Below are positions 6,127 to 18,967 of a stretch of 23,238 nucleotides of DNA, in pieces. Under the pieces are notes generated by a model. The model was not told where the DNA came from, made no database searches, and saw nothing but the letters and a program-made list of their open reading frames with translations. Made by a program: the position numbers and the translations under genes. The stretch lies in contig JBHHYO010000043.1 of NCBI GenBank assembly GCA_046757665.1, forward strand, positions 1 to 23,238, in the 5' to 3' direction. This DNA is from Nitrospinales bacterium. Its GTDB lineage: Bacteria; Nitrospinota; Nitrospinia; Nitrospinales; JAJDAT01. How positions within the stretch are numbered: the stretch's first letter is position 1; every line of letters starts with the position of its first letter.

Positions 6127-6762
6127 ATGACGATGGATAGAGTGTCCCTGCCAAACCTGTGCCATGCCGTCGTCCTTTTTGTTTTCATTTCCCTGCTTCC
6201 GCCGGTACCGACGGCTTTCGCCGACCCCGGGCCTCAGGAGAAGCTGAAACTTCTCAAAACCCAGCTCATCCGGAATATCAAGGCGAAGAACCATACCGAA
6301 GTTCTCCGATTGGTGGGGGAAATCCGCAAGCTGGGCATCCCCCTGGCGGATACGGTGCCTTTTATCGAGGGTCGAGCCTTGCTCTTTTCCGGCAAGCCGG
6401 GGAAAGCCAGAGTTCTGTTGGAAACTTACATTCACCGCGCCGGGGTCAAGGGAAAATTTTACAAACAGGCGCGCCGGCTGTTGAAACGGGCAAAAACGCG
6501 GCAACGGAAATTGCGCGAAACCGCGGTTGGGAAGATGACCGAGGAGGAAAAAAAACGATTTGCCGAACAAACGGCCAAAAACAAAGCGGGCATTGCACGG
6601 TGCGACAAACAATACCGGGTGTGCGCCAGAGTGTCGCAACGCGAGTATAAAGTCGAACTGGACGCCCAGTTGTCCACCGAAACGAAAGTTAAAACCGCCG
6701 GAGAACGCATTCTGGAATGCCGGGCGGTCAGGGACCGGTGTTACGAACCTTTTGAGGACTGA
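6127..6762 (+). CDS. Hypothetical exported helical protein with two C-terminal Cx6C motifs
   Basis: GAGG RBS. Signal-peptide-like N-terminus (..PTAFA). One TPR-like hairpin. CDKQYRVC and CRAVRDRC. Confidence 0.7.
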   Translation: MTMDRVSLPNLCHAVVLFVFISLLPPVPTAFADPGPQEKLKLLKTQLIRNIKAKNHTEVLRLVGEIRKLGIPLADTVPFIEGRALLFSGKPGKARVLLETYIHRAGVKGKFYKQARRLLKRAKTRQRKLRETAVGKMTEEEKKRFAEQTAKNKAGIARCDKQYRVCARVSQREYKVELDAQLSTETKVKTAGERILECRAVRDRCYEPFED

Positions 6763-6848
6763 CCGGCGCCCGTCCACCGTCTTGCTGATGCAACCCGCGA
6801 AGACCCGCCCGGGCGGCGCAATCCGGCCCGCGCCCGCCGCCGCGCCGC

Positions 6849-7652
6849 ATGAAAAACCGTGAAAACATAGCGCCTCGCAAAGGGATTCCTATTCTCTGTT
6901 ACCATAATGTGTCCGACATCAGGCACAAGGCGCTCGCATTGTACATCCTGCCGGTAAAGCGGTTTGCACGCCAGATGCGGTGGCTCAAGAGCAGGGGGTA
7001 TCAGCCGATTTCCCTGGACACGTTATATGATTATCTGGCTCGTGGAGGCCCGATTCCGGCCAAGCCGGTGGTCATCACCTTTGACGATGGATATCGCGAG
7101 TTGAAGGATACGGCCACGCCGCTCCTGGCCGACATGGGTTTTTGCCACACCCACTTTCTAAATCCCGGCAAGCTGGGCGGCGCAACCGACTGGATTGCCG
7201 CGGCGCCGGACCTGCCTATCCTGGGCGGTGAAGAAGTCCGGGCTCTTCTTGCCGCCTATGGGAAATGGGTGGATTTCCAGGCGCACGGAAAAACCCATCT
7301 GTCCCTGAAGCATCAGGACCCGGAAACAATTCGCGCGGAAATTGGCGATAGCATTGCCGATATCGAATCCTTATTACAACGCCCCGTGACTTATTTTGCC
7401 TATCCTTACGGCGACCATGACGAGACCGCTGTCCGCACTGCCGCGGGCATGGCCCTGCGATGCGCGTTTACGGTGGAGCAGGGATTGTGCCGTCCGGGAC
7501 AAAACCTTTTTCGCTTGCCCCGCGTGGAAATCCTCGGCAACGATTTCTTCCTGGATTTCATTTGCAAGGTGCGGTTTGGATGGAGCCCCATCGCCCGTCT
7601 GCGAACGATTCTCAAGCGGATATACAAAAAAATAATGCGGCGATTTGCTTGA
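6849..7652 (+). CDS. Polysaccharide deacetylase (CE4/NodB domain)
   Basis: PILCYH, ITFDDG, H-x3-H (HGKTH), FAYPYG and LPRV motifs. Confidence 0.92.
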   Translation: MKNRENIAPRKGIPILCYHNVSDIRHKALALYILPVKRFARQMRWLKSRGYQPISLDTLYDYLARGGPIPAKPVVITFDDGYRELKDTATPLLADMGFCHTHFLNPGKLGGATDWIAAAPDLPILGGEEVRALLAAYGKWVDFQAHGKTHLSLKHQDPETIRAEIGDSIADIESLLQRPVTYFAYPYGDHDETAVRTAAGMALRCAFTVEQGLCRPGQNLFRLPRVEILGNDFFLDFICKVRFGWSPIARLRTILKRIYKKIMRRFA

Positions 7653-7970
7653 CCTGCGTTCATCGCTCCACGAATTGCAACGCGAAATCCTCACGCCGAA
7701 CCGATGACTCGTCTCTTCAAAATTGAAGCTTCACCAACCCGTCGGGAAGATTGGTGGACCCTCCAGGTGTTTTTTGTCATTGCAGGCAAAAAAACTTTGA
7801 TTTCAAAGGTTCTGTTTTTAGCTGTTTTAATCTCAAAGTAATTCTGTTCTATTGCCTTTTCAGGGCGACTTGTCTAAAATATCATCAAAGAAACAATGAG
7901 TTTTTTGTAGTAGGAGTATTAATGAAAATGGCCTAACATATTGTTTTAGGAACTTTTCTCATGGTTGGTT

Positions 7971-8438
7971 ATGCGATCCAAACCGATTTGTTTTCGAAGG
8001 CGGGAAAACGGGTTCTCCCTGATGGAAATCCTGATGGTGATTGTCATCAGCGGCCTGGTGCTGGCCGGTGCGGTCCCCATGATTTCGGCGTGGGTGGAAA
8101 ACAATCGTTTGACTGGCGCGGCGCGCAAAATTGTCAATGACCTGCATTTCTGCCGGCAGAAGGCTATTTCGAAAAACCTCTATTACATGCTTGATTTTAA
8201 TACGAACATTCCCATTACTTACGATGTCAAGTATGGATCGGTTTTGGGCACTTACACGACGGATCAAACCGTCTCGCTTCCGGAGAGTTCAAGCTTCGCT
8301 TCCATCAGCGCAACTGGGGACCCCGTTTTCAATTATCGGGGCATGGCCGTGGCCGCCGTTACCATAACCCTGACAAATGCCAACAATCGGGTCAAAACAA
8401 TTACCGTATCGCCGGGCGGAAAAATTTCGCTCAATTGA
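7971..8438 (+). CDS. Type IV minor pilin, FimT/FimU/GspH-like
   Basis: Prepilin cleavage site G|FSLME with Glu+5 and a hydrophobic helix. C-terminal F...G....I.L......K.I.VS..G.I pattern of GspH/FimT. Confidence 0.85.
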   Translation: MRSKPICFRRRENGFSLMEILMVIVISGLVLAGAVPMISAWVENNRLTGAARKIVNDLHFCRQKAISKNLYYMLDFNTNIPITYDVKYGSVLGTYTTDQTVSLPESSSFASISATGDPVFNYRGMAVAAVTITLTNANNRVKTITVSPGGKISLN

Positions 8439-8484
8439 GGGAGGAAACGATTTTTGCTTTCGCCGGGAACCACAGAACTGGAGC

Positions 8485-8850
8485 GTGGCCGATGCAAGGG
8501 GCTTGACTCTTCTCGAAGTCCTGATCACCATCACCATTCTTTCCATCGGGTTTTTGGGAACAGCGTCGCTGGTAACTACGTTCGTCCAGAAGAATGCGCA
8601 GGTCAAGCGGATCACGGCGGCGACAACCTTGATTCAAGACAAGATCGAGGCCTTCAAAAGTGCCACGTTCTCCAGTATCACCAACGGCAGTGAAACCAAT
8701 ATCGACTCGAGGGGCCAAGCCGGGGGGCCTTACAGCCGGAGCTGGGTTGTGACGACTTCAGGTCTTGTTAAAACCATTACGGTGACGGTGACGTGGTCCA
8801 TCGGCGCATCGAACAAAAGCAGATCAATGACAACGGCCATCAGCCAATAA
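8485..8850 (+). CDS. pilV: Type IV minor pilin, PilV-like (start uncertain; ORF is open from 8377)
   Basis: G|LTLLEVLITITILSIGFLG prepilin motif, AATTL.QDKIE, C-terminal ITVTVTW strand. GTG at 8485 chosen as the likely start. Confidence 0.8.
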   Translation: MADARGLTLLEVLITITILSIGFLGTASLVTTFVQKNAQVKRITAATTLIQDKIEAFKSATFSSITNGSETNIDSRGQAGGPYSRSWVVTTSGLVKTITVTVTWSIGASNKSRSMTTAISQ

Positions 8851-8876
8851 TTGCCTTGCCGGCTAACTGTTGCAAT

Positions 8877-9731
8877 ATGTTTACGTTACGAAATCATAAG
8901 ACAAAGATTCCGCGGTCAGGGGGCTTTACCCTGATCGAACTGCTGGTTTCCCTGGCCATCGGCCTCGTTGTGCTGGCGTCCCTTTACCGCCTCTTCCTCT
9001 TCCAGGATGAAGTGTTGGGCAGGCAGGAGGGGTTGATGGAAGGAAACCAGAACGCCCGCAACGCGATGGACGTCCTCACCCGCGATTTTCGCATGGCCGG
9101 CCTGGGCGTTCCCAGTTCGGTGCAGGTCATCACCGCGGCCGATTATCAATCCATCACTTTTTTGGTCGATTATTGGAATGTCTTCGCGAAATTGACCAGC
9201 CAGGCGGCCGCTACGAGTACCGTGTTGAATGTGGACAGCATCACCGGATTCAAGTCCGGTCAAACCATCTACGTTTCCGACGGATTCACTGCCGAGTCCG
9301 CGATCCTGGCCGCCGACCCCGCTGGATCCCAGATCACACTCCCCGCCGGGTTGACCAATGCTTTCCCGACGGGAAGTTCGGTGAGCGTGGTCGATACGGT
9401 AACGTTTGATTATGTCGGGATTGCCAGTGATTCCACCAAGCGGCTCAGGCGCAAATTGAATTCCGGCGCCAAGGAAGTGCTGGCCAGCGATATCGATTAC
9501 ATGCAGATAAAATATTACGATTCCACCGGCACTGAAATCTCGAGCGTGGGGAACACCTTGACCTCCGCTGAAAGAAGTAGCGTCAGGAGCCTCAAGGTCC
9601 AGATCGTGGCCCGCAGTGACAAGCAGGGCGCCGGTATCAAGACCGTCACTTATGAGGATGGATCGACCAGCACGGATGGTTATGACCGGATATACCTGGA
9701 ATCCACGGTCCGTTTGAGGAACCTGTTTTAA
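8877..9731 (+). CDS. pilW: Type IV minor pilin, PilW-like
   Basis: G|FTLIELLVSLAIG, N.R.AMD.L.RDFRMAG (PilW-typical), C-terminal VRLRN. Confidence 0.88.
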   Translation: MFTLRNHKTKIPRSGGFTLIELLVSLAIGLVVLASLYRLFLFQDEVLGRQEGLMEGNQNARNAMDVLTRDFRMAGLGVPSSVQVITAADYQSITFLVDYWNVFAKLTSQAAATSTVLNVDSITGFKSGQTIYVSDGFTAESAILAADPAGSQITLPAGLTNAFPTGSSVSVVDTVTFDYVGIASDSTKRLRRKLNSGAKEVLASDIDYMQIKYYDSTGTEISSVGNTLTSAERSSVRSLKVQIVARSDKQGAGIKTVTYEDGSTSTDGYDRIYLESTVRLRNLF

Positions 9732-9751: not shown

Positions 9752-10819
9752 ATGAGGCCCAATTTGGCGTTGCAGTTGCAGGAGGCGGTTGAATCCGGAA
9801 AGTCCTATCTCAACAATGCTCAAGGAGTGGTATTGATCGTTGCCCTCGTGCTCCTGGCGGTCATGCTCACCCTGGGTTCGCTCATGGCGCGGAATATGGC
9901 GACGGAGATCAGCATCTCAGGAAATTACGAAACCAACACACGTTCCTTGTTTGTCGCGGAAGGCGGATTGGAAATCGCCAAGGGTGAAATCTCCGGCAAC
10001 ATCAGTGGTGGCTTTACCGCCGACGGGTATTCCTCCGGAAACAGCCAGGAGTATGAGGTGGAATACGCTTCGATCCCCATGACCACGTTGACGAATCCCG
10101 TCAATTGGCTGGGCACGAGCAGTGGATGGTCCGTGAACAAAACGGCGGCCTCGAATACCCTCATGGACACGGTGGCGAGCACGGATTTAGATTTGACCAA
10201 CGCAACCTGGCCGCTCTACAAAAAAGTCGCGATCGGCGCCGATTTTGCGGTAGTGAGCCTGGAAAGACCCGAATGGTTTTCCTCCAATCCCACCAAGGTG
10301 CGGTTCAGCATCACATCGGAAACGGACAACCTGGCCAACACCAATCTGCTGAACCGCAAGGTAACCGGGACGTTCGAAGTCAACATGGGCAACAACTTTC
10401 TGACGTTTCAGACGTTTTCGGATCCCGCGGACAACCAGACCTTTATCGACAATATCGCAAACAATTTTGTGGTGATCGGCTCCGCGGGAACTCACTACGG
10501 CGGCGCGGGAGCGGGCAACGATTATGGAATCGATGCGGCAAGCGACGCCATTGCCGGGATTTGGACCTATGACCTGCTCGATAAAATCCTGATCATACAG
10601 AAGTGTACTGGCGGCACGCCGGGCTCGTTTTCCGGTTGCGCCAAGTATGGGAAGCCGGAGTTGAATACCACCAATCGGACCTTTATGCTCGGCGGTTCCG
10701 GTCATGGTTGCCTGTTTGGCGTCGACCCCTCCGATCCCGATGCGACGGCGGCAACGATCACCGTTACCGCGGGAGAAAAATACAAGCTCAAATATGTCAC
10801 TTCAGTGACTTGCCCCTGA
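9752..10819 (+). CDS. pilX: Type IV minor pilin, PilX-like
   Basis: QG|VVLIVALVLL lacking Glu+5 (diagnostic of PilX/GspK), SLFVAEGGLE motif, position after pilW, four C-terminal Cys. Confidence 0.85.
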   Translation: MRPNLALQLQEAVESGKSYLNNAQGVVLIVALVLLAVMLTLGSLMARNMATEISISGNYETNTRSLFVAEGGLEIAKGEISGNISGGFTADGYSSGNSQEYEVEYASIPMTTLTNPVNWLGTSSGWSVNKTAASNTLMDTVASTDLDLTNATWPLYKKVAIGADFAVVSLERPEWFSSNPTKVRFSITSETDNLANTNLLNRKVTGTFEVNMGNNFLTFQTFSDPADNQTFIDNIANNFVVIGSAGTHYGGAGAGNDYGIDAASDAIAGIWTYDLLDKILIIQKCTGGTPGSFSGCAKYGKPELNTTNRTFMLGGSGHGCLFGVDPSDPDATAATITVTAGEKYKLKYVTSVTCP

Positions 10820-10865
10820 ATCGTGGGTTGGATGATTTGATTAACTTTTTAAAGGAGATTTACAA

Positions 10866-11030
10866 ATGCAGACTTTCAAAAAAAGAAACCTGAAAAGCTT
10901 TATCTTTGTGATTGCCCTGGCGGTTACCTTGACCGCGCCGATGGCCATGGCGGGAGGTAGCAACAACAACGGCGGTTCGAGTTTCGATTCTCCGGACCCT
11001 AAAATCAAGGAATTCCGGGAAACAAAGTAG
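10866..11030 (+). CDS. 54-aa secreted micro-protein, copy 1 (MQTFKKRNLKSFIFVIALAVTLTAPMAMA|GGSNNNGGSSFDSPDPKIKEFRETK)
   Basis: AAGGAG RBS, Sec signal with AxA site, 46/54 identical to copy 2. Not in the ORF track. Confidence 0.85.
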   Translation: MQTFKKRNLKSFIFVIALAVTLTAPMAMAGGSNNNGGSSFDSPDPKIKEFRETK

Positions 11031-11131
11031 ATTGCGGGGTTTGCCCGCGCATCATGACTCAGTGTTGATTCGTTGGTTTGTCCATGAATCGTGTGTTAGG
11101 TGGTTTCATTAACTTTTTAGAGGAGGTTCAC

Positions 11132-11296
11132 ATGCAGACTTTCAAAAAAAGAAACCTGAAAAGTTTCATCTTTGCGATTGCCTTGGCGGTTACCTTGACC
11201 GCGCCGATGGCTATTGCGGGAGGCAGTAACAACAACAGTGGAACGGGTTTCGATTCCCCGGATCTTAAAATCAAGGAATTCCGGGAGAAACAGTAA
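11132..11296 (+). CDS. 54-aa secreted micro-protein, copy 2 (MQTFKKRNLKSFIFAIALAVTLTAPMAIA|GGSNNNSGTGFDSPDLKIKEFREKQ)
   Basis: AGGAGG RBS before ATG 11132. Same length and frame as copy 1, with many synonymous differences. Confidence 0.85.
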   Translation: MQTFKKRNLKSFIFAIALAVTLTAPMAIAGGSNNNSGTGFDSPDLKIKEFREKQ

Positions 11297-11316: not shown

Positions 11317-12237
11317 ATGCGCATTTTATTTCCATTGTTGAAAAGCAACCTGGCGGCGCTTGTTTGCTTCCTGCTGCTTTCCGGATGCTTCCGGATTCCC
11401 CAGCAGGAGCTACAAGCCGCCGTGGACCCGCTGAACGACAAAAACTACCCGCTGGCCATTGAAAAACTTTCGCAACTGCTGGAACGGTATCCTAAAAACG
11501 CCCAGGTGAATTATTACCTTGCTTTTGCTCACATGAAAAACAAGGAGCATAAAAAGGCGCTTCATTTTTTGGATCAGGTGCTGGCGTTTCAGAAAGACTA
11601 TGAAGCCGTTGTCGGCGACATCAAGATGGCCAACTTTTTGGCGGGCAACAGCCAAACCACGCGGGACCCGTTTTTCCGTCTGGCGGTTCTGGAAGCGCAA
11701 AAGATCATCGAGTTGCACCCCAACACAGAAATTTCCGACCGCGTCCGGTTTCATTTGGGTCATTATTATCTTTGGAAACGGGATTATCCCGCCGCCATCC
11801 GGATTTTCAAGCAGGTGATTGACAGTCCGCCCGGCGATACCGAGTCCGACCGCAATGCGTACCTGATGCTGGGAAATGTCTTTCTGCGTTACCTGGATAA
11901 CGAGGCGGAGGGTCTGAAGTTTCATAAGGCCCTGATGGAACGTTATCCGGGGAGCGACGCCGCGGTGGAGGCCCTGTTTCAGTCCGCCGAGTACAATGAA
12001 AACAAGATGCGGGTTTACGACCAAAGATACCGCGCCCTGCGCGAGTTTGCCCAAACCTGGAGCAATGATTCCACGCTGGGGCTGGAAGCCCGGTCCGCCA
12101 GGCAACAATCGCAGAAAGACCTTCAGTTTGCCATGAAGTACCGGGAAAAAGCGGTGGCGGCGTATCGCAAGATTCTTGACGGCCGCGGCGAGGACGCATT
12201 TTACGCCCGCGCCAAAACCCGGTTGGACCGGCTTTGA
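11317..12237 (+). CDS. TPR lipoprotein (BamD/YfiO-like repeat architecture)
   Basis: Lipobox LSGC. TPR units (YYLAFAH, FHLGHYY, AYLMLGNV) and 'ERYP.S..A.EA' motifs. Overlaps the next gene by 4 bp. Confidence 0.85.
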   Translation: MRILFPLLKSNLAALVCFLLLSGCFRIPQQELQAAVDPLNDKNYPLAIEKLSQLLERYPKNAQVNYYLAFAHMKNKEHKKALHFLDQVLAFQKDYEAVVGDIKMANFLAGNSQTTRDPFFRLAVLEAQKIIELHPNTEISDRVRFHLGHYYLWKRDYPAAIRIFKQVIDSPPGDTESDRNAYLMLGNVFLRYLDNEAEGLKFHKALMERYPGSDAAVEALFQSAEYNENKMRVYDQRYRALREFAQTWSNDSTLGLEARSARQQSQKDLQFAMKYREKAVAAYRKILDGRGEDAFYARAKTRLDRL

Positions 12238-13694
12238 AAATCCGTTTTCTTGTTCCCCCGGCGATTTTTGCCGCGGCCCTCGCTTTTTTCTACCCCATTC
12301 AGTTCTCCACGCAAAACATCCCCGGTTTCGACGGCTTCTATCACATCAAGCTGGCCTCGATCATCAGCCATCAGGGAATTGTCCATGAATTCCCCTGGTT
12401 TTGGCATACGCCGGGCGGATTCATCGACATTCATTTTTTGTATCATCTCCTGCTTGTCCCGTTTACCTCGGTTGATTTGATTGAGGGCGCCAAGCTTTCC
12501 ACCGTCGTTTTTTTTTCGATATTCAGTGTCGTCTTTTATTACGCCCTGAAAACCTCGAAGGTTCCCTTGCCATGGGTCTGGCTGGCCCTTTGTTTGATTA
12601 TCTCGACCGAGTTTTTGTATCGCATGAGTCTGCCCCGCGCGCCGTTGGTGGCGCTTTCATTTTTGTTCATGGGCGCCTGCCTGGTTGCCGGCGGGAAATA
12701 CAAGGCGGTGTTTTTTCTCACATTTGCTTTTGTCTGGTTATACGGCGGATTCACGCTTTTTGTTCTGCTGGCGTGTTTTATTGTTCTGAGCCAATGGGTG
12801 GTCGAAAGGCGTGTGGATGACCGGAGCCTCGCCGCCGTTCTTTTGGGCGCCGCCGCGGGCCTGGTGGTCAATCCGTATTTCCCGGAGAATGCGTTTTTCC
12901 TGTTCGCGCAAACCTTTTCGGCGGGCGTGGACCGCATGGTGCCGGGCGGCGAGGAATGGAAGCCGTATGGCGCAGTGGCGCTACTGACGTCTCATCTGAG
13001 CCTGGTGTTTCTGTTGGCCGCTACGGCTTCGGTCTTTGCGTCCGTCAGAAAAAAACCGCGTCCGGACACCCTGGGCTGGGTTCTGTTCCTGATCCTCGTC
13101 ATCTGCCTGACCTTGCGGTCCAGACGCTTTGTGGAGTACCTCGTGCCCGTGGCGGTTATGGCGGGCGCCCTGCTGTTCCGCGACGGGTGGCGCGAGTCGC
13201 CGTTGCACAGCCGTTTCACATCGCGTGGGATTGGCCTGTTGGTTCAGGCGGCCCTGGTCGCCGCCCTGCTTTTCATCGGCGGCCGCCAGATTGACGCGGC
13301 AAAAAAAGAACTGCGCGACCCCAGAGCCACCGGGCGCTATCAACAAGCCGCGCTCTGGCTCAAAACCCATACGCCCGGCTCCACGATCTTTAATACGGAT
13401 TGGGATGATTTCCCGGAGTTGTTCTTTTACAATTCCAGAAACCGTTATGTGGCGGGCCTCGATCCCGCGTTTTTGTATTTGTACGATCAATCCCTCTATC
13501 GCAAGTGGGTCGATATCAGCCAGGGAGCGCTCGAGGGCGACCCCTATCCCGTTTTGAGAAATGACTTTAAAACACCGTACCTGTTTACCGACCTGCGCCA
13601 CGGCCGGTTTATCCGGCTTATGGAAAAGCATCCGTTGATCGAGCTTGTGTACAAGGACGCCCACGCCCACATCTACCGCCTGCGAAAAAAATAA
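12234..13694 (+). CDS. Multi-pass membrane GT-C-fold protein, STT3/AglB oligosaccharyltransferase-like
   Basis: DGFYH in the first external loop, many TM helices, RRFVEY, then a soluble domain with A..WLK..TP...IFNTDWDDFP. Confidence 0.65.
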   Translation: MKIRFLVPPAIFAAALAFFYPIQFSTQNIPGFDGFYHIKLASIISHQGIVHEFPWFWHTPGGFIDIHFLYHLLLVPFTSVDLIEGAKLSTVVFFSIFSVVFYYALKTSKVPLPWVWLALCLIISTEFLYRMSLPRAPLVALSFLFMGACLVAGGKYKAVFFLTFAFVWLYGGFTLFVLLACFIVLSQWVVERRVDDRSLAAVLLGAAAGLVVNPYFPENAFFLFAQTFSAGVDRMVPGGEEWKPYGAVALLTSHLSLVFLLAATASVFASVRKKPRPDTLGWVLFLILVICLTLRSRRFVEYLVPVAVMAGALLFRDGWRESPLHSRFTSRGIGLLVQAALVAALLFIGGRQIDAAKKELRDPRATGRYQQAALWLKTHTPGSTIFNTDWDDFPELFFYNSRNRYVAGLDPAFLYLYDQSLYRKWVDISQGALEGDPYPVLRNDFKTPYLFTDLRHGRFIRLMEKHPLIELVYKDAHAHIYRLRKK

Positions 13695-13732: not shown

Positions 13733-15769
13733 TTACGGGACAAGCCCTTTGGCCGGGGTCGCCGTCGTTTTGGCAGGGATGAGGGCTTTTCGGGGGACCA
13801 GGCCCTTGTCGCCGGCGGGTGTGATCCAGGCCGGATAGAACTCCACCGGCTTGCCGGTGTGCGGGAAAAACAGCTCCAGGGTATGCACCCCTTTTGTGAG
13901 CTGGACCGCGTATTCCCACAGGCCGTGGTGGTTGCGGAAGTCGAGCTTCCGGCTCGGTTTCTCGTCGATTTTGAATGTATGTTCATGAGGCGTGAAAATG
14001 GCGAACCGGTACCGGCCGGTTTCGGGGATGACCAGGTATCGAAACCATTCAAACCCCTTGGGCGAAATTTTCGATCCGGCTTTCGTGTTGGTCAAGTCGG
14101 GTCGATCTTTCCCCTGGGCCTCCATGGACTTGTAAATTTCCAGCAAGGGAACGCCTTCCCGTCGCACGGCGTATTCCGGGGTCAGGTAATCGGCGTAAAA
14201 CCAGTCGCGGGCCTTGAACCAGCCCTGCCGGTACTGCAACAGATAATAATCGTAATCCGTTTTCTTCTGGGAGATGGACGGGTCCAGGATTCCGATTTGC
14301 TTATAATATTTGAAGGTGTACTTCAATCCCGTCACTTCCGAAAACGCTTTGCCATGGTATTTCCGATTCATCATGGCCGCCGTTTCGAGAGTGAAGGCGT
14401 CGTTCCAGTAGGTCGATTCCAAACCCAGTTTCCGTGCGCCCTGCGGGCCGCCGACAAACAGGTTGAAATAGGAAAGCTCGAAGGGATGAATCCGCGCCAG
14501 GGACAGGCCGGAGAAAAATATCACCGCCACGGCGAGGCCGGGAGCCAGGATAGACTGGATGCTTTGGCGGGCGGCAATCCGGGCCAGATAAAACGAGCCG
14601 ATTCCCGCCAGCCCCGCCAGAAAAGGAAAGGCAGACAAAAACAAGCGCACGCCGTCGTAAATGGGAATGTTTTTAAATAACGTCAGACCCAGGGCCGACA
14701 AGGCGTTCAGGGTAAAAAACAGCCCCAGAAAATCCGCCGCCCGCCTGGAAAAATACGACCGGATTTCGCGCCAGGCGCTCATGACCAGTCCGAACAAGGA
14801 TAATATCAGCGTCAAGGGCGGCAGGGTGATCGATGTCATGAAAAACGCATAATATTTGGGAGGCGAGAAGCCGTAGTGTTCGCCCAGAAAATGCGTCGAT
14901 ACCTGTTCGTAACTTTTTTTGGTCATCATGTTGTCCAGAAAATCAACCAGGTTGTACAGCGAGTGCCAGTAGCTTGGGTTGGTCAGGTAAAGCACCAGAG
15001 GAGAAATGACCAGCAAGGCAACCAGGTTCGGCAGGATGTTTTTTCTGAAAAACAACAGCCCCCAGAAGAACAGGGGCAGGGGCGCGGCAAATCCGTGAAT
15101 TTTCGTGTTCATGGCCAGTCCGGCGGAAACGGCGAACAACACCGCCCAGCGGCGGGAATGCAGACCGTGGATAAAACAAAACGCGGTGATCAGCCACATG
15201 GAGGCGATTTGGCTGTCCAGGGCGATCAGGTGGGCGTGGCCGAATGCCGCCGGGCACAGGAGAAGGCCGAAGGATGCTACAATACCGGGCGCCCATCCGT
15301 AGTACCGGGCGACAAGGAGAAACAGCAGGGCAACCGAGATGGCGAACAAAACGGCAGGCGCCAGACGCAGTGCCCTGATCTCCCCCAGACTGCCGTGAAA
15401 CCACTTCCAGGTTATCCCGGTCAGGGTTCTGGCGAATGGAGGGTGGAAAAGGTATTGGGGTTTGAAATACTCCTTGATGAATTCCCGGGAGGTCAAATGC
15501 TCCCAGTTGCCATGCGCGACGTCTGCCAGCGCCAGTTCCAGCCAGGTGACGAATGAGATTGCCGCCTCGCGGTTGGCGTACGGTTCGTCCAGGGTGACGC
15601 CGGGGTCGTCCAGCGTGGCGAACAGGAGAAAAAACGCCGTCAGGAAAACCGCCAGGCCGATCCAGCGCCGGGCGCGCCGGGTGGTCGCGTCTTCCGGGAG
15701 AAGTACCGCGGCGACGGCATCCGGGCCGGGCGTTTGCGGCGGGCTTTGTTCGGCAATGGTTTTATTCAT
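13733..15769 (-). CDS. GT-C glycosyltransferase (ArnT/PMT, GT39/83-like) with a C-terminal soluble beta domain
   Basis: TLDEP acidic motif after TM1, HPPF, ALRL, H...LD, GLAMNTK, RLFL, LSYFN..VGG and YW motifs. Many TM segments. Confidence 0.8.
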   Translation of the reverse strand: MNKTIAEQSPPQTPGPDAVAAVLLPEDATTRRARRWIGLAVFLTAFFLLFATLDDPGVTLDEPYANREAAISFVTWLELALADVAHGNWEHLTSREFIKEYFKPQYLFHPPFARTLTGITWKWFHGSLGEIRALRLAPAVLFAISVALLFLLVARYYGWAPGIVASFGLLLCPAAFGHAHLIALDSQIASMWLITAFCFIHGLHSRRWAVLFAVSAGLAMNTKIHGFAAPLPLFFWGLLFFRKNILPNLVALLVISPLVLYLTNPSYWHSLYNLVDFLDNMMTKKSYEQVSTHFLGEHYGFSPPKYYAFFMTSITLPPLTLILSLFGLVMSAWREIRSYFSRRAADFLGLFFTLNALSALGLTLFKNIPIYDGVRLFLSAFPFLAGLAGIGSFYLARIAARQSIQSILAPGLAVAVIFFSGLSLARIHPFELSYFNLFVGGPQGARKLGLESTYWNDAFTLETAAMMNRKYHGKAFSEVTGLKYTFKYYKQIGILDPSISQKKTDYDYYLLQYRQGWFKARDWFYADYLTPEYAVRREGVPLLEIYKSMEAQGKDRPDLTNTKAGSKISPKGFEWFRYLVIPETGRYRFAIFTPHEHTFKIDEKPSRKLDFRNHHGLWEYAVQLTKGVHTLELFFPHTGKPVEFYPAWITPAGDKGLVPRKALIPAKTTATPAKGLVP

Positions 15770-15827: not shown

Positions 15828-16808
15828 ATGAAAGTACTCATTACCGGCGGTACGGGGTTCATTGGTTCGGTTTTAATTCGCCGTCTGCTCGAGCGCCGGA
15901 TGACGGTCGAGGCGCTGGTCCGCCATCCCGGCCAGGCAAACGCCCTGGAAAGCCGGGGCGTGAAGGTCTTGCGGGCGGACCTGTCCCGTCCGGAAACCTT
16001 GAAGGAGGTGGAAGGAACCTGGGACGTCGTTATCAATACAGCGGGAGTCATGGGCAAGTTCGGTATTTCGCCGGAGCAGATACGCGCCGTCAATGTTGAC
16101 GGCGTTGCCGCCTTGTATCGTTTGTGCCGGGAACGGGGCGCGCGGCAGTTTATTCATCTCAGCACGGTCGGAGTGACCGGCCCCACGCAGGGGGCGGTTT
16201 TCGACGAGTCCAGTCCCTGCCATCCGTCCACCGTTTATGAACGTTGCAAGCTGGAGGGGGAACAAGTCCTGGCCGGCCTGCATGAACCCGGCGCGGGTTC
16301 CTTGTCCATCCTGCGGCCCGGGTTCACCTACGGCCCCGGAGACAGGCATAAACTGGCCCTGTTCCGCGCCATCGACCGGGGATTTTTTTTTCTTATCGGG
16401 CCGGGAGACGGATTGTTGCAACCCATTTATGTTGACGACCTGGTGAAAGGGATCGAAAAAACCATGGACGCGCGGCCGGAGGGTTGCGAGATCATCAATC
16501 TGTGCGGCGCCCGGCCGCTGACGTGGAAAACGTTCGCCACCACTGCCGCGGCAGTCATGGGAAAAAAAATCCCCCCCGTCAACCTTCCCCTTTGGCTCTG
16601 CCGGACCGCCGCGGGTGTTTTTGAAACGGCGGGGAAATTTCTGCCTTTCGCGCCGCCGCTGACCCGATCCAGAATCGCCCTCATGACGCAAAGTTATGCC
16701 TACCGTATCGACAAAGCGGAAAGACTTTTAGGATTCAAGCCGGAAACAAGTCTTGAGGAAGGAATCGCCCGCACCGTCAATGAGTACCGCGAGCGCCGTT
16801 TACTTTAA
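15828..16808 (+). CDS. NAD-dependent epimerase/dehydratase (extended SDR)
   Basis: GGTGFIG Rossmann motif, YERCK (YxxxK), YGPGD. Start placed at MKVLITGG. Confidence 0.92.
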   Translation: MKVLITGGTGFIGSVLIRRLLERRMTVEALVRHPGQANALESRGVKVLRADLSRPETLKEVEGTWDVVINTAGVMGKFGISPEQIRAVNVDGVAALYRLCRERGARQFIHLSTVGVTGPTQGAVFDESSPCHPSTVYERCKLEGEQVLAGLHEPGAGSLSILRPGFTYGPGDRHKLALFRAIDRGFFFLIGPGDGLLQPIYVDDLVKGIEKTMDARPEGCEIINLCGARPLTWKTFATTAAAVMGKKIPPVNLPLWLCRTAAGVFETAGKFLPFAPPLTRSRIALMTQSYAYRIDKAERLLGFKPETSLEEGIARTVNEYRERRLL

Positions 16809-17940
16809 AGGGAAGCAAATGGAGCAGGACCTGGGCCAGTTTTCTGAAATCGCAAAGGATGTTCGCGTAAGACTGGTTGGCCAGGGGACAGTGGCATTTC
16901 TTCTGCTTGATAAATTTGCGAACCTCCGCCGCCCGTTCGGAACGCCAGATGTCCCAAAAGCGGAATTGCGTGTCCTTGAGATTTCCCATGGACTGAGTAT
17001 TTCCCAGAATACAGCAAGGCCAGACATTGCCGTAGGGGTCAACGTGAACGTTTGAAATTCCGCCATAACAAGGGATGACCTGTTTTTTTCTGTTTAAAAT
17101 ATCCGCGGTTAGGTCATAATAAACAAGGCGGAAAGCATCCGTTATGCGGGCCAGGCCCTTTTTCCGGCTCAACCGGGAGTGGATGGCGGTTTTGAATTCG
17201 CGCATGGCGATTTTGAATTCGTCCGGCGAAGGCGCGATGTTGTCTTCCGTGTTGAACATTTCGTCGCGGTTTTCGGCCACTTCGGAAATATAGGAATCGA
17301 CGTCCAGTTTGTCGGCGTAATCCATGATTTCCCGCAGGTGTTTGATGTTGAACCGGGATACGACAGTGCCGAGTCCGACATGCAGGTTGGTGCGCCCTTT
17401 TTGCAGTTCCTTGAGTCCCGCGACGAGCCGGAGCAGTTTGTCGAAATTGCCTTTCACGCCGCGGACCTCGTCATGCATACTGCCAACGCCGTCAAAGGAA
17501 GGCTTGATTTGCAAAGCGATGTTCGGAAAGCGCGCGTCCAGCATGGCCAGGATTTTTTTGACCGACACAATCGTTTTCTCCACCGCCAGCGCGTTGGTGG
17601 GAATATGAATGACCGAGGGGCGCAGGTATCGGCAACCCAGCTCGACGATTTCCGGCAGGTCGTTTCGCAGGAAAGGACAGCCGCCGGATACGTTGAAGAA
17701 ATAGACGTTGCCCACGGAGCGAAACATTTTTTCGATTTCATCCAGGGACAATTCTTCCTGCAACTTTTCGGGTTCTTTGCGGTACACCTCCCAGATTTTG
17801 CAGGAGAGACAGCGCGACTGGCATTTATTGGTAACCGAAAAGGTGAAGTTGATCGGCGCGGCGGCGGGCGTAACTCCCATATGAGTCAGCCGGAAGTTTA
17901 TTACTTTTTCAGCAATGTGCAGGCCTTGTTTAATTTTCAT
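16777..17940 (-). CDS. Radical SAM protein with SPASM/twitch domain
   Basis: CQSRCLSC (Cx3Cx2C), SGG, C-terminal C..G......P.G.VWPCC...GNL and CHC. Start placed at MKIKQG; the ORF is open to 18003. Confidence 0.9.
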   Translation of the reverse strand: MKIKQGLHIAEKVINFRLTHMGVTPAAAPINFTFSVTNKCQSRCLSCKIWEVYRKEPEKLQEELSLDEIEKMFRSVGNVYFFNVSGGCPFLRNDLPEIVELGCRYLRPSVIHIPTNALAVEKTIVSVKKILAMLDARFPNIALQIKPSFDGVGSMHDEVRGVKGNFDKLLRLVAGLKELQKGRTNLHVGLGTVVSRFNIKHLREIMDYADKLDVDSYISEVAENRDEMFNTEDNIAPSPDEFKIAMREFKTAIHSRLSRKKGLARITDAFRLVYYDLTADILNRKKQVIPCYGGISNVHVDPYGNVWPCCILGNTQSMGNLKDTQFRFWDIWRSERAAEVRKFIKQKKCHCPLANQSYANILCDFRKLAQVLLHLLPFKVNGARGTH

Positions 17941-17983
17941 AACACTCTCGAAAGGTGGAAGCGTTTGTTCCTTCCAATCTATC

Positions 17984-18967
17984 ATGTCTGACGGCCAACC
18001 CAAAAACTTAAACGCCGGGCCTTGCGAGCCGGTGGATTTGAGCGTGGTGATCCCGGTTTACAACGAAGAGGAAAATGTTCCGGTCATTTTTTCCAAACTG
18101 CAAGCCGTTCTCGGCTCCACGGGCAAAACCTTTGAAATTATCTTTGTTGACGACGGCAGTACGGACGCTTCCCTGCGTCGGATGCTGGATATCAAGAAGC
18201 AGGCGCCCGAAGTCCGGGTCTTCGGGTTGGGAAGAAACATGGGGAAATCCATCGCATTAGCTACAGGGTTCAAGCACGCCCTTGGGGAAAACGTGGTGAC
18301 GCTGGACGCCGACTATCAGGAGCCGCCCGAGGCGATTCCGAGTTTGATCGCCTGCCTGGACAACGGCTACGACATGGTTTCCGCCTGGCGGAAGAGAAGG
18401 CGGGACCCTCTTGAGAAAGTATGGAGTTCCAAAATCTTCAACTGGCTGGTTCACAAAATCGCGCGCACATCCATCCATGATATTAATTGTGGATTCAAAA
18501 TTTACAAGAAGGAAGTCGTCAAAAACATCCAGCTTCATGGCGGGTTGCACCGCGTGATACCCATTCTCGCGGAAAGGGCAGGCTACCGGGTCGGCGAAAT
18601 GGTCGTGGAACACCGCCCCCGGGAACACGGGGAAACCAAGTTCCGCGGAGTCTTCCGGGGACTGCATGGCATTTTCGATTTGTTGACGGTCCTGTTTCTT
18701 GCCAGTTACCACAAACGGCCCATGCATTTTTTCGGAATGGTCGGATTGATTTTGTTCCTCTTTGGCCTGGCCATCAATGCCTTTTTGACGTTTCGCTATT
18801 TTCTTGGAATCGGTTTCATCGGAGAAAGACTCCCCTTGCTGATGCTGGGCATCCTGTCGATGATCCTGGGGTTTCAGTCCTTTTGCATAGGACTGCTGGG
18901 AGAAATGTTCGTTCGCGGAACCTCGGAGGCGGCCCCCAAGGGTCAGGACGAAGAAATCCACTCATGA
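17984..18967 (+). CDS. Glycosyltransferase family 2, ArnC/GtrB/DPM1-like (polyprenyl-phosphate glycosyltransferase)
   Basis: SVVIPVYNEE, VDDGSTD, DAD, D.NCGFK and HR motifs, with two C-terminal TM helices. Confidence 0.92.
   Translation: MSDGQPKNLNAGPCEPVDLSVVIPVYNEEENVPVIFSKLQAVLGSTGKTFEIIFVDDGSTDASLRRMLDIKKQAPEVRVFGLGRNMGKSIALATGFKHALGENVVTLDADYQEPPEAIPSLIACLDNGYDMVSAWRKRRRDPLEKVWSSKIFNWLVHKIARTSIHDINCGFKIYKKEVVKNIQLHGGLHRVIPILAERAGYRVGEMVVEHRPREHGETKFRGVFRGLHGIFDLLTVLFLASYHKRPMHFFGMVGLILFLFGLAINAFLTFRYFLGIGFIGERLPLLMLGILSMILGFQSFCIGLLGEMFVRGTSEAAPKGQDEEIHS

Follow-up and report, generated by a model that had tools for sequence, protein, structure and literature searches.

What stands in for PilY1 at the end of a minor-pilin operon that lacks it? 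This question is raised by a stretch of 23,238 nucleotides (contig JBHHYO010000043.1 of GenBank assembly GCA_046757665.1), referred to here as the window, from a metagenome-assembled Nitrospinota genome of 2.97 Mb and 97.6% completeness. In the window, a fimT-pilV-pilW-pilX gene set is followed by two 54-codon genes, which occupy the slot 3′ of pilX that is taken in other systems by pilY1 or mshQ (PMC13533445). Our analysis suggests that the conserved tail of these predicted Sec-exported micro-proteins serves as a final β-strand supplied in trans to the tip pilin PilX, a reading that we hold to be somewhat better than an even bet. It is supported by the position of the genes, the complementary distribution of a C-terminal motif across the phylum, the failure to find another donor and a structural model of the complex that is clean against its controls.

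The sequence-only reading of this locus started from the premise that the C-terminal strand of PilY1 completes the PilX/PilK sheet, and the published work bears it out (PMC13533445; PMC13711793). The 2026 study reported that a single terminal β-strand on the PilK/PilX sheet licenses type IV filaments and that a fusion engineered to carry the strand alone is partly sufficient. In PilC/PilY1, it is the final ~10 residues that complete a small PilK/PilX sheet at the PilJ-PilK interface, and this strand is necessary and partly sufficient for assembly; GspK of the type II secretion system (T2SS) and PilK homologs of systems without PilY1 carry it in cis, and MshQ is its predicted donor in MSHA pili (PMC13533445). 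A conserved W marks the PilC/PilY1 tail, and R, E and hydrophobic residues usually come after it in this order; the W has hydrophobic flanks and sits in a hydrophobic pocket (PMC13711793).

Against this background, the C-terminal ends of the Nitrospinota proteins are informative. In 12 other Nitrospinota genomes, the PilX-like proteins (397-495 residues) encoded in pilV-pilW-pilX clusters without peptide genes invariably place a W 4-6 residues before the C-terminus (17/17) and end in [SAT]W[NQRKA][EKHR] plus one to three residues (17/17; VVSWNEIN, LLSWQET, TVAWKEID and TISWKKVK are examples). By contrast, the PilX protein of the window ends in ..KYKLKYVTSVTCP and is without the W-tail of its Nitrospinota counterparts, and all 10 peptide-linked PilX proteins in alignment A4 end in an RYKxxYxxSVTCP-like sequence that has no W. 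A W near the end is also found in all six PilY1 homologs from other Nitrospinota orders, five of which read ..ISW[RKE]E plus one or two residues and the sixth ..YWKKVGD, and the four T2SS GspK-like proteins all end in ..YWNDN plus four residues. As far as the sequences can tell, the motif that is absent from the linked PilX proteins, an aromatic residue, a basic residue and Glu within a few residues of the C-terminus, is exactly that of their peptides. The tail shared by all 17 members of the peptide family, [FY][RH]E plus one to three residues, resembles the ..SW[RKE]E plus one or two residues of PilY1, but has no W and is preceded by charged residues.

Other sources of the strand were not found. 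The PilY1 domain (PF05567) was found in none of the 102 genomes of the order to which the window belongs, including its own assembly, so that the absence of pilY1 from the window, noted in the sequence-only reading, extends to the whole assembly. The same search detected PF05567 in 11 of 18 genomes from other Nitrospinota orders and is thus capable of finding PilY1 in this phylum. A large donor of a different kind is likewise not apparent in the genome itself: among 577 open reading frames (ORFs) of at least 500 residues, the only one with W[RKNQ][ED] among its last 12 residues lies antisense to ilvD. Judged by these tails, the phylum would supply the strand in three ways, namely through PilY1 in other orders, through PilX itself in most of this order and through a micro-protein in a small clade. 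As a separate observation, one Nitrospinota genome (loci L135, at G019:C1:2584000-2598000, and L146) has five tandem PilX-like paralogs of 449-495 residues after one pilV-pilW pair and a sixth elsewhere; all of them end in ..V[SA]WNE plus one to three residues, giving the appearance of a cassette of interchangeable tip pilins.

The position of the peptide genes is equally consistent. At all six loci for which the context is available (the window, G017, G020, G011, G014 and metagenome contig L090), they lie between the orthologous pilX and a gene for a tetratricopeptide-repeat (TPR) lipoprotein, in agreement with the expectation that they always follow pilX. Five of these loci contain two copies and L090 contains one, which is of a longer form described below; the twin arrangement emphasized in the sequence-only reading is therefore typical but not universal.

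The two genes of the window were correctly recognized from the outset: sequence and ORF list agree on 54 codons each, ribosome-binding sites, Sec signals with an AxA site and products of 25 residues. Copy A extends over 10866..11030 and copy B over 11132..11296, both on the + strand, preceded by the ribosome-binding sites AGGAG (10853..10857, +), 8 nt 5′ of the ATG, and GAGGAGG (11120..11126, +), 5 nt 5′ of the ATG, respectively. Both products start with a basic n-region (MQTFKKRNLK) and a hydrophobic h-region and have A-x-A immediately before GGS. This signal peptide, assigned by eye from the sequence, corresponds to positions 10866-10952 in copy A and 11132-11218 in copy B, leaving predicted mature peptides of 25 residues encoded at 10953-11027 and 11219-11293. 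These consist of GGSNNN, four small residues, FDSP, two residues, the tail KIKEFRE (11001-11021 in copy A, 11267-11287 in copy B) and two final residues, TK in one copy and KQ in the other.

Together with their leaders, copies A and B form a tandem duplication of ~266 bp with a mean column identity of 89%. Their 54 sense codons (34.7 synonymous and 127.3 non-synonymous sites) differ by 10 synonymous and 8 replacement changes, and this excess of synonymous over replacement change per site is the pattern of a translated gene under purifying selection. Judged by this pattern and by the conservation of the protein across three genera, the micro-protein genes are real. The contigs of two sequencing runs, possibly those of the source samples, end at a 32-nt repeat common to both gene starts, and the 294-nt unit between these starts (10868-11161) has a depth of 22.1 in run X1, compared with ~15 in the flanks (~1.45x), and of 15.6 in run X2, compared with ~13.5 (~1.15x). 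Contig breaks at the repeat and a separate 294-nt unit are consistent with a genuine tandem pair. The depth ratio of ~1.45 in run X1 may also reflect a third copy of the unit in some cells.

The peptides belong to a small family without a name. They match no family in Pfam (E ≤ 10) or NCBIfam (E ≤ 1), the sole library row, ETRAMP at E 0.12, having been dismissed as chance. They also have no N_methyl match and are not among the results of a genome-wide scan for prepilin motifs, and thus are not type IV pilins or pseudopilins. Within their own genome, nothing apart from the two copies matched strongly, and a profile search over 120 Nitrospinota genomes gave strong matches (E ≤ 7e-15) in five, with two genes each: the genome of the window (G000), G017 and G020 from one genus, and G011 and G014 from another; a few metagenome contigs add to these. 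A word-index search of 5.8 billion clusters returned 11 proteins at E ≤ 1, the two of the window among them, and an exhaustive profile scan of 1.84 billion representatives gave seven matches at E ≤ 0.001, four of which are true members (P0002, P0004, P0012 and P0014). The remaining P0013, P0015 and P0016 are long repetitive proteins whose match is confined to the signal or the N-rich part, and they were set aside. A scan with alignment A2 yielded, from the genome collection, only the two contigs already known and, from the metagenome collection, none, and contig L090 was obtained from a metagenome scan with PilX. Among longer proteins (183-2000 residues), no candidate bearing the tail was found at E ≤ 10, a result that counts as weak evidence by the search tool's own statement.

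Two forms can be distinguished within the family. A short form of 48-56 residues is found in the window, G017, G020 and several metagenome proteins, and a long form of 102-104 residues in P0012, G011, G014 and the single gene of L090. In the latter, a module of ~45 residues (K-V-x-I-C-H...T-L-N-V...G-H-I-P-N-H...G-x-C) is inserted between the signal and the N-rich patch, so that the signal peptide, the N-rich patch, F..P and the C-terminal tail are all that the two forms have in common. The tail follows the consensus [KRQ][IM]K[ED][FY][RH]E plus one to three residues. The KIKEFRE stretch was thus correctly identified in both copies of the window, but it is neither the extreme C-terminus nor invariant across the family. 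Similarly, the idea of a PilY1 substitute without an adhesin is only partly right, because the long forms carry the two-cysteine module before their tail. In an AlphaFold2 model of the long form, this module adopts a β-β-α arrangement with a predicted local distance difference test (pLDDT) score of 75-83, and the tail is disordered. A fold search of the PDB gave nothing significant for the module; its look-alikes in the Atlas, unnamed modules of many secreted bacterial proteins with feature scores of at most 0.77, are leads only. It contains two invariant Cys and three invariant His/Asn/Asp positions (P0012 residues 33-75; L075:6262-6573 and 6615-6923) and, judged by these residues, may bind a metal. 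The nearest relative of the window locus is L090, with a PilX 76% identical to that of the window, a near-identical signal peptide and one long-form gene. Since this nearest locus has the long form, the short twins of the window probably arose when the module was lost and the shortened gene was then duplicated. At another locus with long-form genes, in G011, a 65-codon ORF between them (L076:6772-6969, -) duplicates the 5′ part of the TPR gene and is a remnant of the event that gave rise to the second copy.

How the tail might engage PilX is suggested by a four-chain ESMFold2 model comprising PilV 7-121, PilW 17-284, PilX 26-355 and peptide A 25-54, each with its own alignment. The complex reached interface scores (ipSAE) of 0.67, 0.65 and 0.63, whereas the best of three controls, in which the partner was replaced twice and PilX once, scored 0.00. 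The ipSAE mark, which 58 of 80 solved complexes attained along with 2 of 110 mismatched pairs, is only a rough guide here (own alignments, four chains, calibration on single-chain pairs), and the score states the model's own confidence rather than a measurement of binding. The runs share at least 77% of their contacts, with a partner pLDDT of ~60. In the model, peptide residues 39-54 run antiparallel along PilX strand 202-215 (RKVTGTFEVNMGNN), such that K46-E52 pair with V204-N211 of PilX, and F40 and D41 with N215 and N214. Residue contacts include T207 of PilX with K48 and E49, N211 with D44, T205 with F50 and N215 with F40. PilX E209, which is acidic in all 10 orthologs, is placed opposite K46 and K48. 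The peptide further touches PilX helix residues 66-91 and PilW at 69-77, 98-103, 168 and 281-284, with PilW R281 lying against F50. The modelled site, which lies where PilX meets PilW, and its geometry match those described for the PilC/PilY1 tail (PMC13533445). The proposal that the tail mimics the PilY1 strand and docks on PilX in trans thus gains computational support from the distribution of the tails and from a model that shows strand pairing on PilX at an ipSAE of 0.65 compared with 0.00 in the controls.

If this reading is correct, the tail F-D-S-P-x-x-K-I-K-E-F-R-E-x-x would act in the periplasm as the last strand of PilX. The completed sheet would then be recognized by the PilV-PilW pair, as inferred from the published work on PilC/PilY1 and GspK, and this recognition is proposed to yield the tip initiation complex and thereby to license polymerization of the type IVa pilus. 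The residues N-terminal to the tail would project from the pilus tip, with the two-cysteine module of ~45 residues taking their place in the long forms. The peptides would be, in this sense, a variant of the known donation of a β-strand in trans to the tip complex of type IV filaments, but they fall outside the PilY1 family because they lack its defining PF05567 propeller.

The closest parallel is PilC/PilY1, as described for N. gonorrhoeae PilC, A. baylyi PilY1 and K. kingae PilC1/2 (PMC13533445; PMC13711793). As in these systems, the gene directly follows pilX, the product is exported by the Sec pathway (a prediction in our case), and the extreme C-terminus combines an aromatic residue, F or Y in the peptides and W in PilY1, with a basic residue, Glu and a few further residues; the addition of the strand to the PilX/PilK sheet, cradled by PilW/PilJ, is shared as well, although for the peptide only in the model. 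Unlike PilC/PilY1, the peptides lack a β-propeller, the Pfam PilY1 domain and an adhesin or von Willebrand-type N-terminal domain, have 25 residues in their mature form (~75 in the long forms) instead of 1000-1500, carry a charged K-I-K-E before the aromatic residue where PilY1 has a hydrophobic V-I-S, and are encoded in two tandem copies. GspK/XcpX and the PilX/PilK proteins of systems without PilY1 (T2SS, the competence pili of V. cholerae and Thermus, and CpaL) share the presumed role, that of the last tip-pilin strand, but provide it in cis, whereas here it would be carried by a polypeptide of its own that has a signal peptide, and the linked PilX ends in ..SVTCP. A functional precedent is given by the engineered PilK-C-beta and PilX-C-beta chimeras and by the CpaL delta-middle variant, for which a strand without the adhesin body was reported to be partly sufficient; these are cis fusions made in the laboratory, compared with the natural, unfused trans donor proposed here (PMC13533445). 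MshQ of MSHA pili, finally, is a non-PilY1 protein that is encoded beside a PilK homolog and predicted to donate a C-terminal strand, but it has ~1200 residues (PMC13533445), and the genome studied here has, on another contig, an MSHA-like cluster with P0024, a protein in which a peptide-like module is internal rather than terminal. Full-text searches on PilY1, minor pilins and Nitrospinota pili returned no earlier description of a small stand-alone strand donor.

Should the proposal hold, a natural donor of 25 residues would represent a minimal form of the licensing mechanism, showing that natural systems can do without the body of the adhesin, and it would provide a clean, chemically synthesizable ligand for biochemical and structural studies of tip-complex assembly. 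Moreover, the presence of three interchangeable solutions in one phylum would make the evolution of the licensing strand, possible gene fission included, directly testable. Small ORFs after pilX in other phyla without PilY1, which usually go unannotated, would also merit a second look.

Several observations weigh against a free-standing strand donor. The tail is far more charged (5/7 residues) than those of PilC/PilY1 and has F or Y in place of W. The N-rich patch is invariant, and 16 of the 17 family sequences have an N-x-S/T sequon there, a feature that a bare strand donor does not need. The module NNN-4-FDSP-3-IxEFxE recurs inside P0024, at residues 134-153 of 752, which is at odds with a strictly C-terminal, buried strand. 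As for the structural evidence, the peptide has a pLDDT of only ~60 in the complex, and the monomer model of PilX is poor (pLDDT 63.6, predicted template modelling score 0.48) and found no match at E ≤ 0.001, and no solved GspK, in a Foldseek search of the PDB. With a monomer model of this quality, the sheet is only presumed to be open and the site presumed not to be filled by PilX's own C-terminal strand (343-349). Lastly, co-occurrence cannot identify the partner of the peptide: the orthologs of PilX (E ≤ 7e-73), the TPR lipoprotein (E ≤ 1e-76) and a neighbouring GT-C-like membrane protein (E ≤ 1e-159) are each confined to the same 5 of 61 related genomes, so that pilX, peptide, TPR and GT-C genes share one phyletic pattern.

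P0024 itself (G000:C45:6331-8586, -; L086:6328-8586) is a secreted DUF7305 protein of 752 residues encoded beside the MSHA-like cluster. Its module, with a spacing identical to that of the peptides, is preceded by a K/D-rich linker and followed by a DUF7305 β-solenoid, which is also present in the PilX-like protein encoded in the MSHA-like cluster; for its first ~250 residues, no homolog was found in the 120 Nitrospinota genomes. The notion that it fuses the module to a PilX-type domain was rejected, as it is not detectably related to the PilX of the window (hhalign probability 0.09).

The internal position of this module, after a K/D-rich linker, fits a tag more readily than a terminal strand and is one of the points in favour of the main alternative. 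This alternative holds that the peptides and the P0024 module are substrates of the TPR/GT-C pair, with the tail bound by the TPR protein and the N/S/T patch glycosylated, giving rise to a glycopeptide, secreted or periplasmic, that has nothing to do with docking on PilX. The TPR lipoprotein gene (11317..12237, +; lipobox LLSGC, Pfam TPR families) starts 20 nt 3′ of copy B with no + strand terminator between them, the TPR and GT-C genes are found in those 5 of 61 genomes that also encode the peptide, and the N-rich patch bears its sequon in nearly every member (16/17). The gene that follows (12234..13694, +), which may be part of the same operon as the peptides, encodes a multi-pass membrane protein of 486 residues from an unnamed GT-C-like family: it weakly matches TIGR04154 STT3 (E 2.7e-6, 26 bits, compared with a cut-off of 450 bits), its closest named Atlas clusters are PMT_2, STT3 and Dpy19, and its structural neighbours carry TPR fusions. 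A PMT_2 enzyme, an epimerase, GT2 and GT4 glycosyltransferases and a polysaccharide deacetylase surround the operon. Compared with bacterial N-glycosylation acceptors of the PglB/STT3 type, the picture is mixed: the sequon is there in nearly all members, the short forms do not have the acidic residue at position -2 that goes with PglB, and the neighbouring GT-C protein matches STT3 only weakly. However, copy A of the window has no N-x-S/T sequon. The GT-C family also extends broadly into other phyla, with clusters of 492, 72 and 71 members, whereas the peptide family is tiny, and glycosylation alone explains neither the missing W-tail of the peptide-linked PilX proteins nor the specific, control-clean PilX/PilW model. 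We consider this alternative unlikely, if still worth serious attention, and it could hold alongside strand donation, since a peptide that is anchored at the tip by its tail and glycosylated on its stub also fits the data. It is tempting to speculate further that a split-off and duplicated tip strand acts as a diffusible "licence key" that gates pilus initiation, with the N-terminal stub (NNN/N-x-S) being glycosylated by the co-operonic TPR/GT-C pair, so that the minimal and exchangeable tip of the pilus would be a glycan or, in the long forms, a His/Cys mini-domain and the P0024 module would admit a second cargo; this elaborate scenario appears doubtful to us.

A role in the pilus apparatus away from the tip, for instance as a ligand or plug of the secretin, or with the TPR lipoprotein taking a PilF-like pilotin role and the tail acting as a short linear motif, would agree with the pilus-related nature of the remaining operon and with a sub-threshold match of the TPR lipoprotein to the type_IV_pilW pilotin (E 1.4e-7, 31 bits, compared with a cut-off of 154 bits). 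Yet all of its NCBIfam matches (YbgF, BamD and type_IV_pilW) lie below their cut-offs, its best matches are generic (YbgF, BamD and designed consensus TPRs), and a PDB sequence search returned generic and designed TPRs and BamD only. As nothing connects the tail with the secretin and the absent W-tail of the linked PilX would again go unexplained, we regard such an accessory function as quite improbable. Lower still is the probability we assign to the suggestion that the peptides are signalling molecules or precursors of ribosomally synthesized and post-translationally modified peptides, altered by a radical SAM/SPASM enzyme (for example at an aromatic-x-acid motif) before their export as a signal or an antimicrobial. 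Such an enzyme is indeed encoded in the window (16777-18003, -), 5.5 kb downstream of the peptide genes, and the peptides are small, duplicated and endowed with an invariant C-terminal motif. Their N-terminus, however, reads as a classical Sec signal with an AxA site instead of a leader of this peptide class, and the syntenic G014 locus contains no homolog of the enzyme in the 10 kb beyond the epimerase gene, which weakens this explanation and indicates that the enzyme is probably unrelated to the peptides. In addition, the conserved neighbours of the peptides at the six loci do not include a gene for a dedicated transporter, protease, kinase or immunity protein, and the long forms contain a module that is folded in the model.

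The genes around the peptides place them in a larger inherited unit. Upstream, the polysaccharide deacetylase gene (6849..7652, +; Pfam Polysacc_deac_1, E 3e-17) lies 5′ of the minor-pilin genes at four loci (the window, L090, L023 and L075, with tblastn orthologs in the latter three), and the entire block from the deacetylase to the GT-C gene is inherited as a unit. Promoter-like sites at 7852-7885 precede fimT. The minor-pilin genes, all on the + strand, comprise a fimT/gspH-like gene (7965..8438; Pfam N_methyl, E 1e-6, and GspH, E 8e-4; prepilin motif G|FSLME), a pilV-like gene (8485..8850; N_methyl, alignment A6), a pilW-like gene (8877..9731; N_methyl and PilW, alignment A5) and the pilX-like gene for the tip pilin of 355 residues (9752..10819; PilX_N, alignment A4 with 10 orthologs). 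The pilV frame is open from 8377 (8377-8850), with a likely start at 8485 giving the leader MADARG|LTLLE, and that of pilW from 8793 (8793-9731), with a likely start at 8877. No + strand terminator-like site was found between pilX and the TPR gene; a GC-rich hairpin between the two copies (GCGGG-GTTTG-CCCGC, 11034..11048) is not followed by a T-run on the + strand and thus does not score as a terminator on that strand. The contig contains no further prepilin-type gene 3′ of pilX.

At the level of the genome, the window has the sole fimT-pilVWX-type set detected in the genome-wide prepilin-motif scan. There are three type IV filament systems, represented by pilM/O/P/Q on contig C5, a T2SS-like cluster on C2 and the MSHA-like cluster on C45, and the pilus machinery encoded includes PilM, PilO, PilP and PilQ together with two major-pilin-like genes (C8).

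Glycan-related genes are prominent in the window, including those for an MBOAT protein, the deacetylase, the epimerase, GT2 and GT4. The PMT_2-type GT-C glycosyltransferase of 678 residues (13733..15769, -; Pfam PMT_2, E 2e-9) is convergent with the operon and has orthologs in L075 and L076. For the 486-residue protein, searches gave no Pfam family and no PDB sequence match; large unnamed GT-C-like Atlas clusters of this kind occur in Chloroflexota, Acidobacteriota and Planctomycetota, and its TPR-fused structural neighbours are from Myxococcota. It contains a conserved DWDDF stretch, which we take to be reminiscent of the WWDYG motif of oligosaccharyltransferases. Finally, the PilX orthologs in alignment A4 share an invariant N-T-T-N-x-T-F stretch (window positions 10664-10681, residues ~305-310; N305, N308 and F311 invariant) with two overlapping N-x-T sequons, and this stretch, encoded near the GT-C genes, might be where the tip pilin itself is glycosylated.

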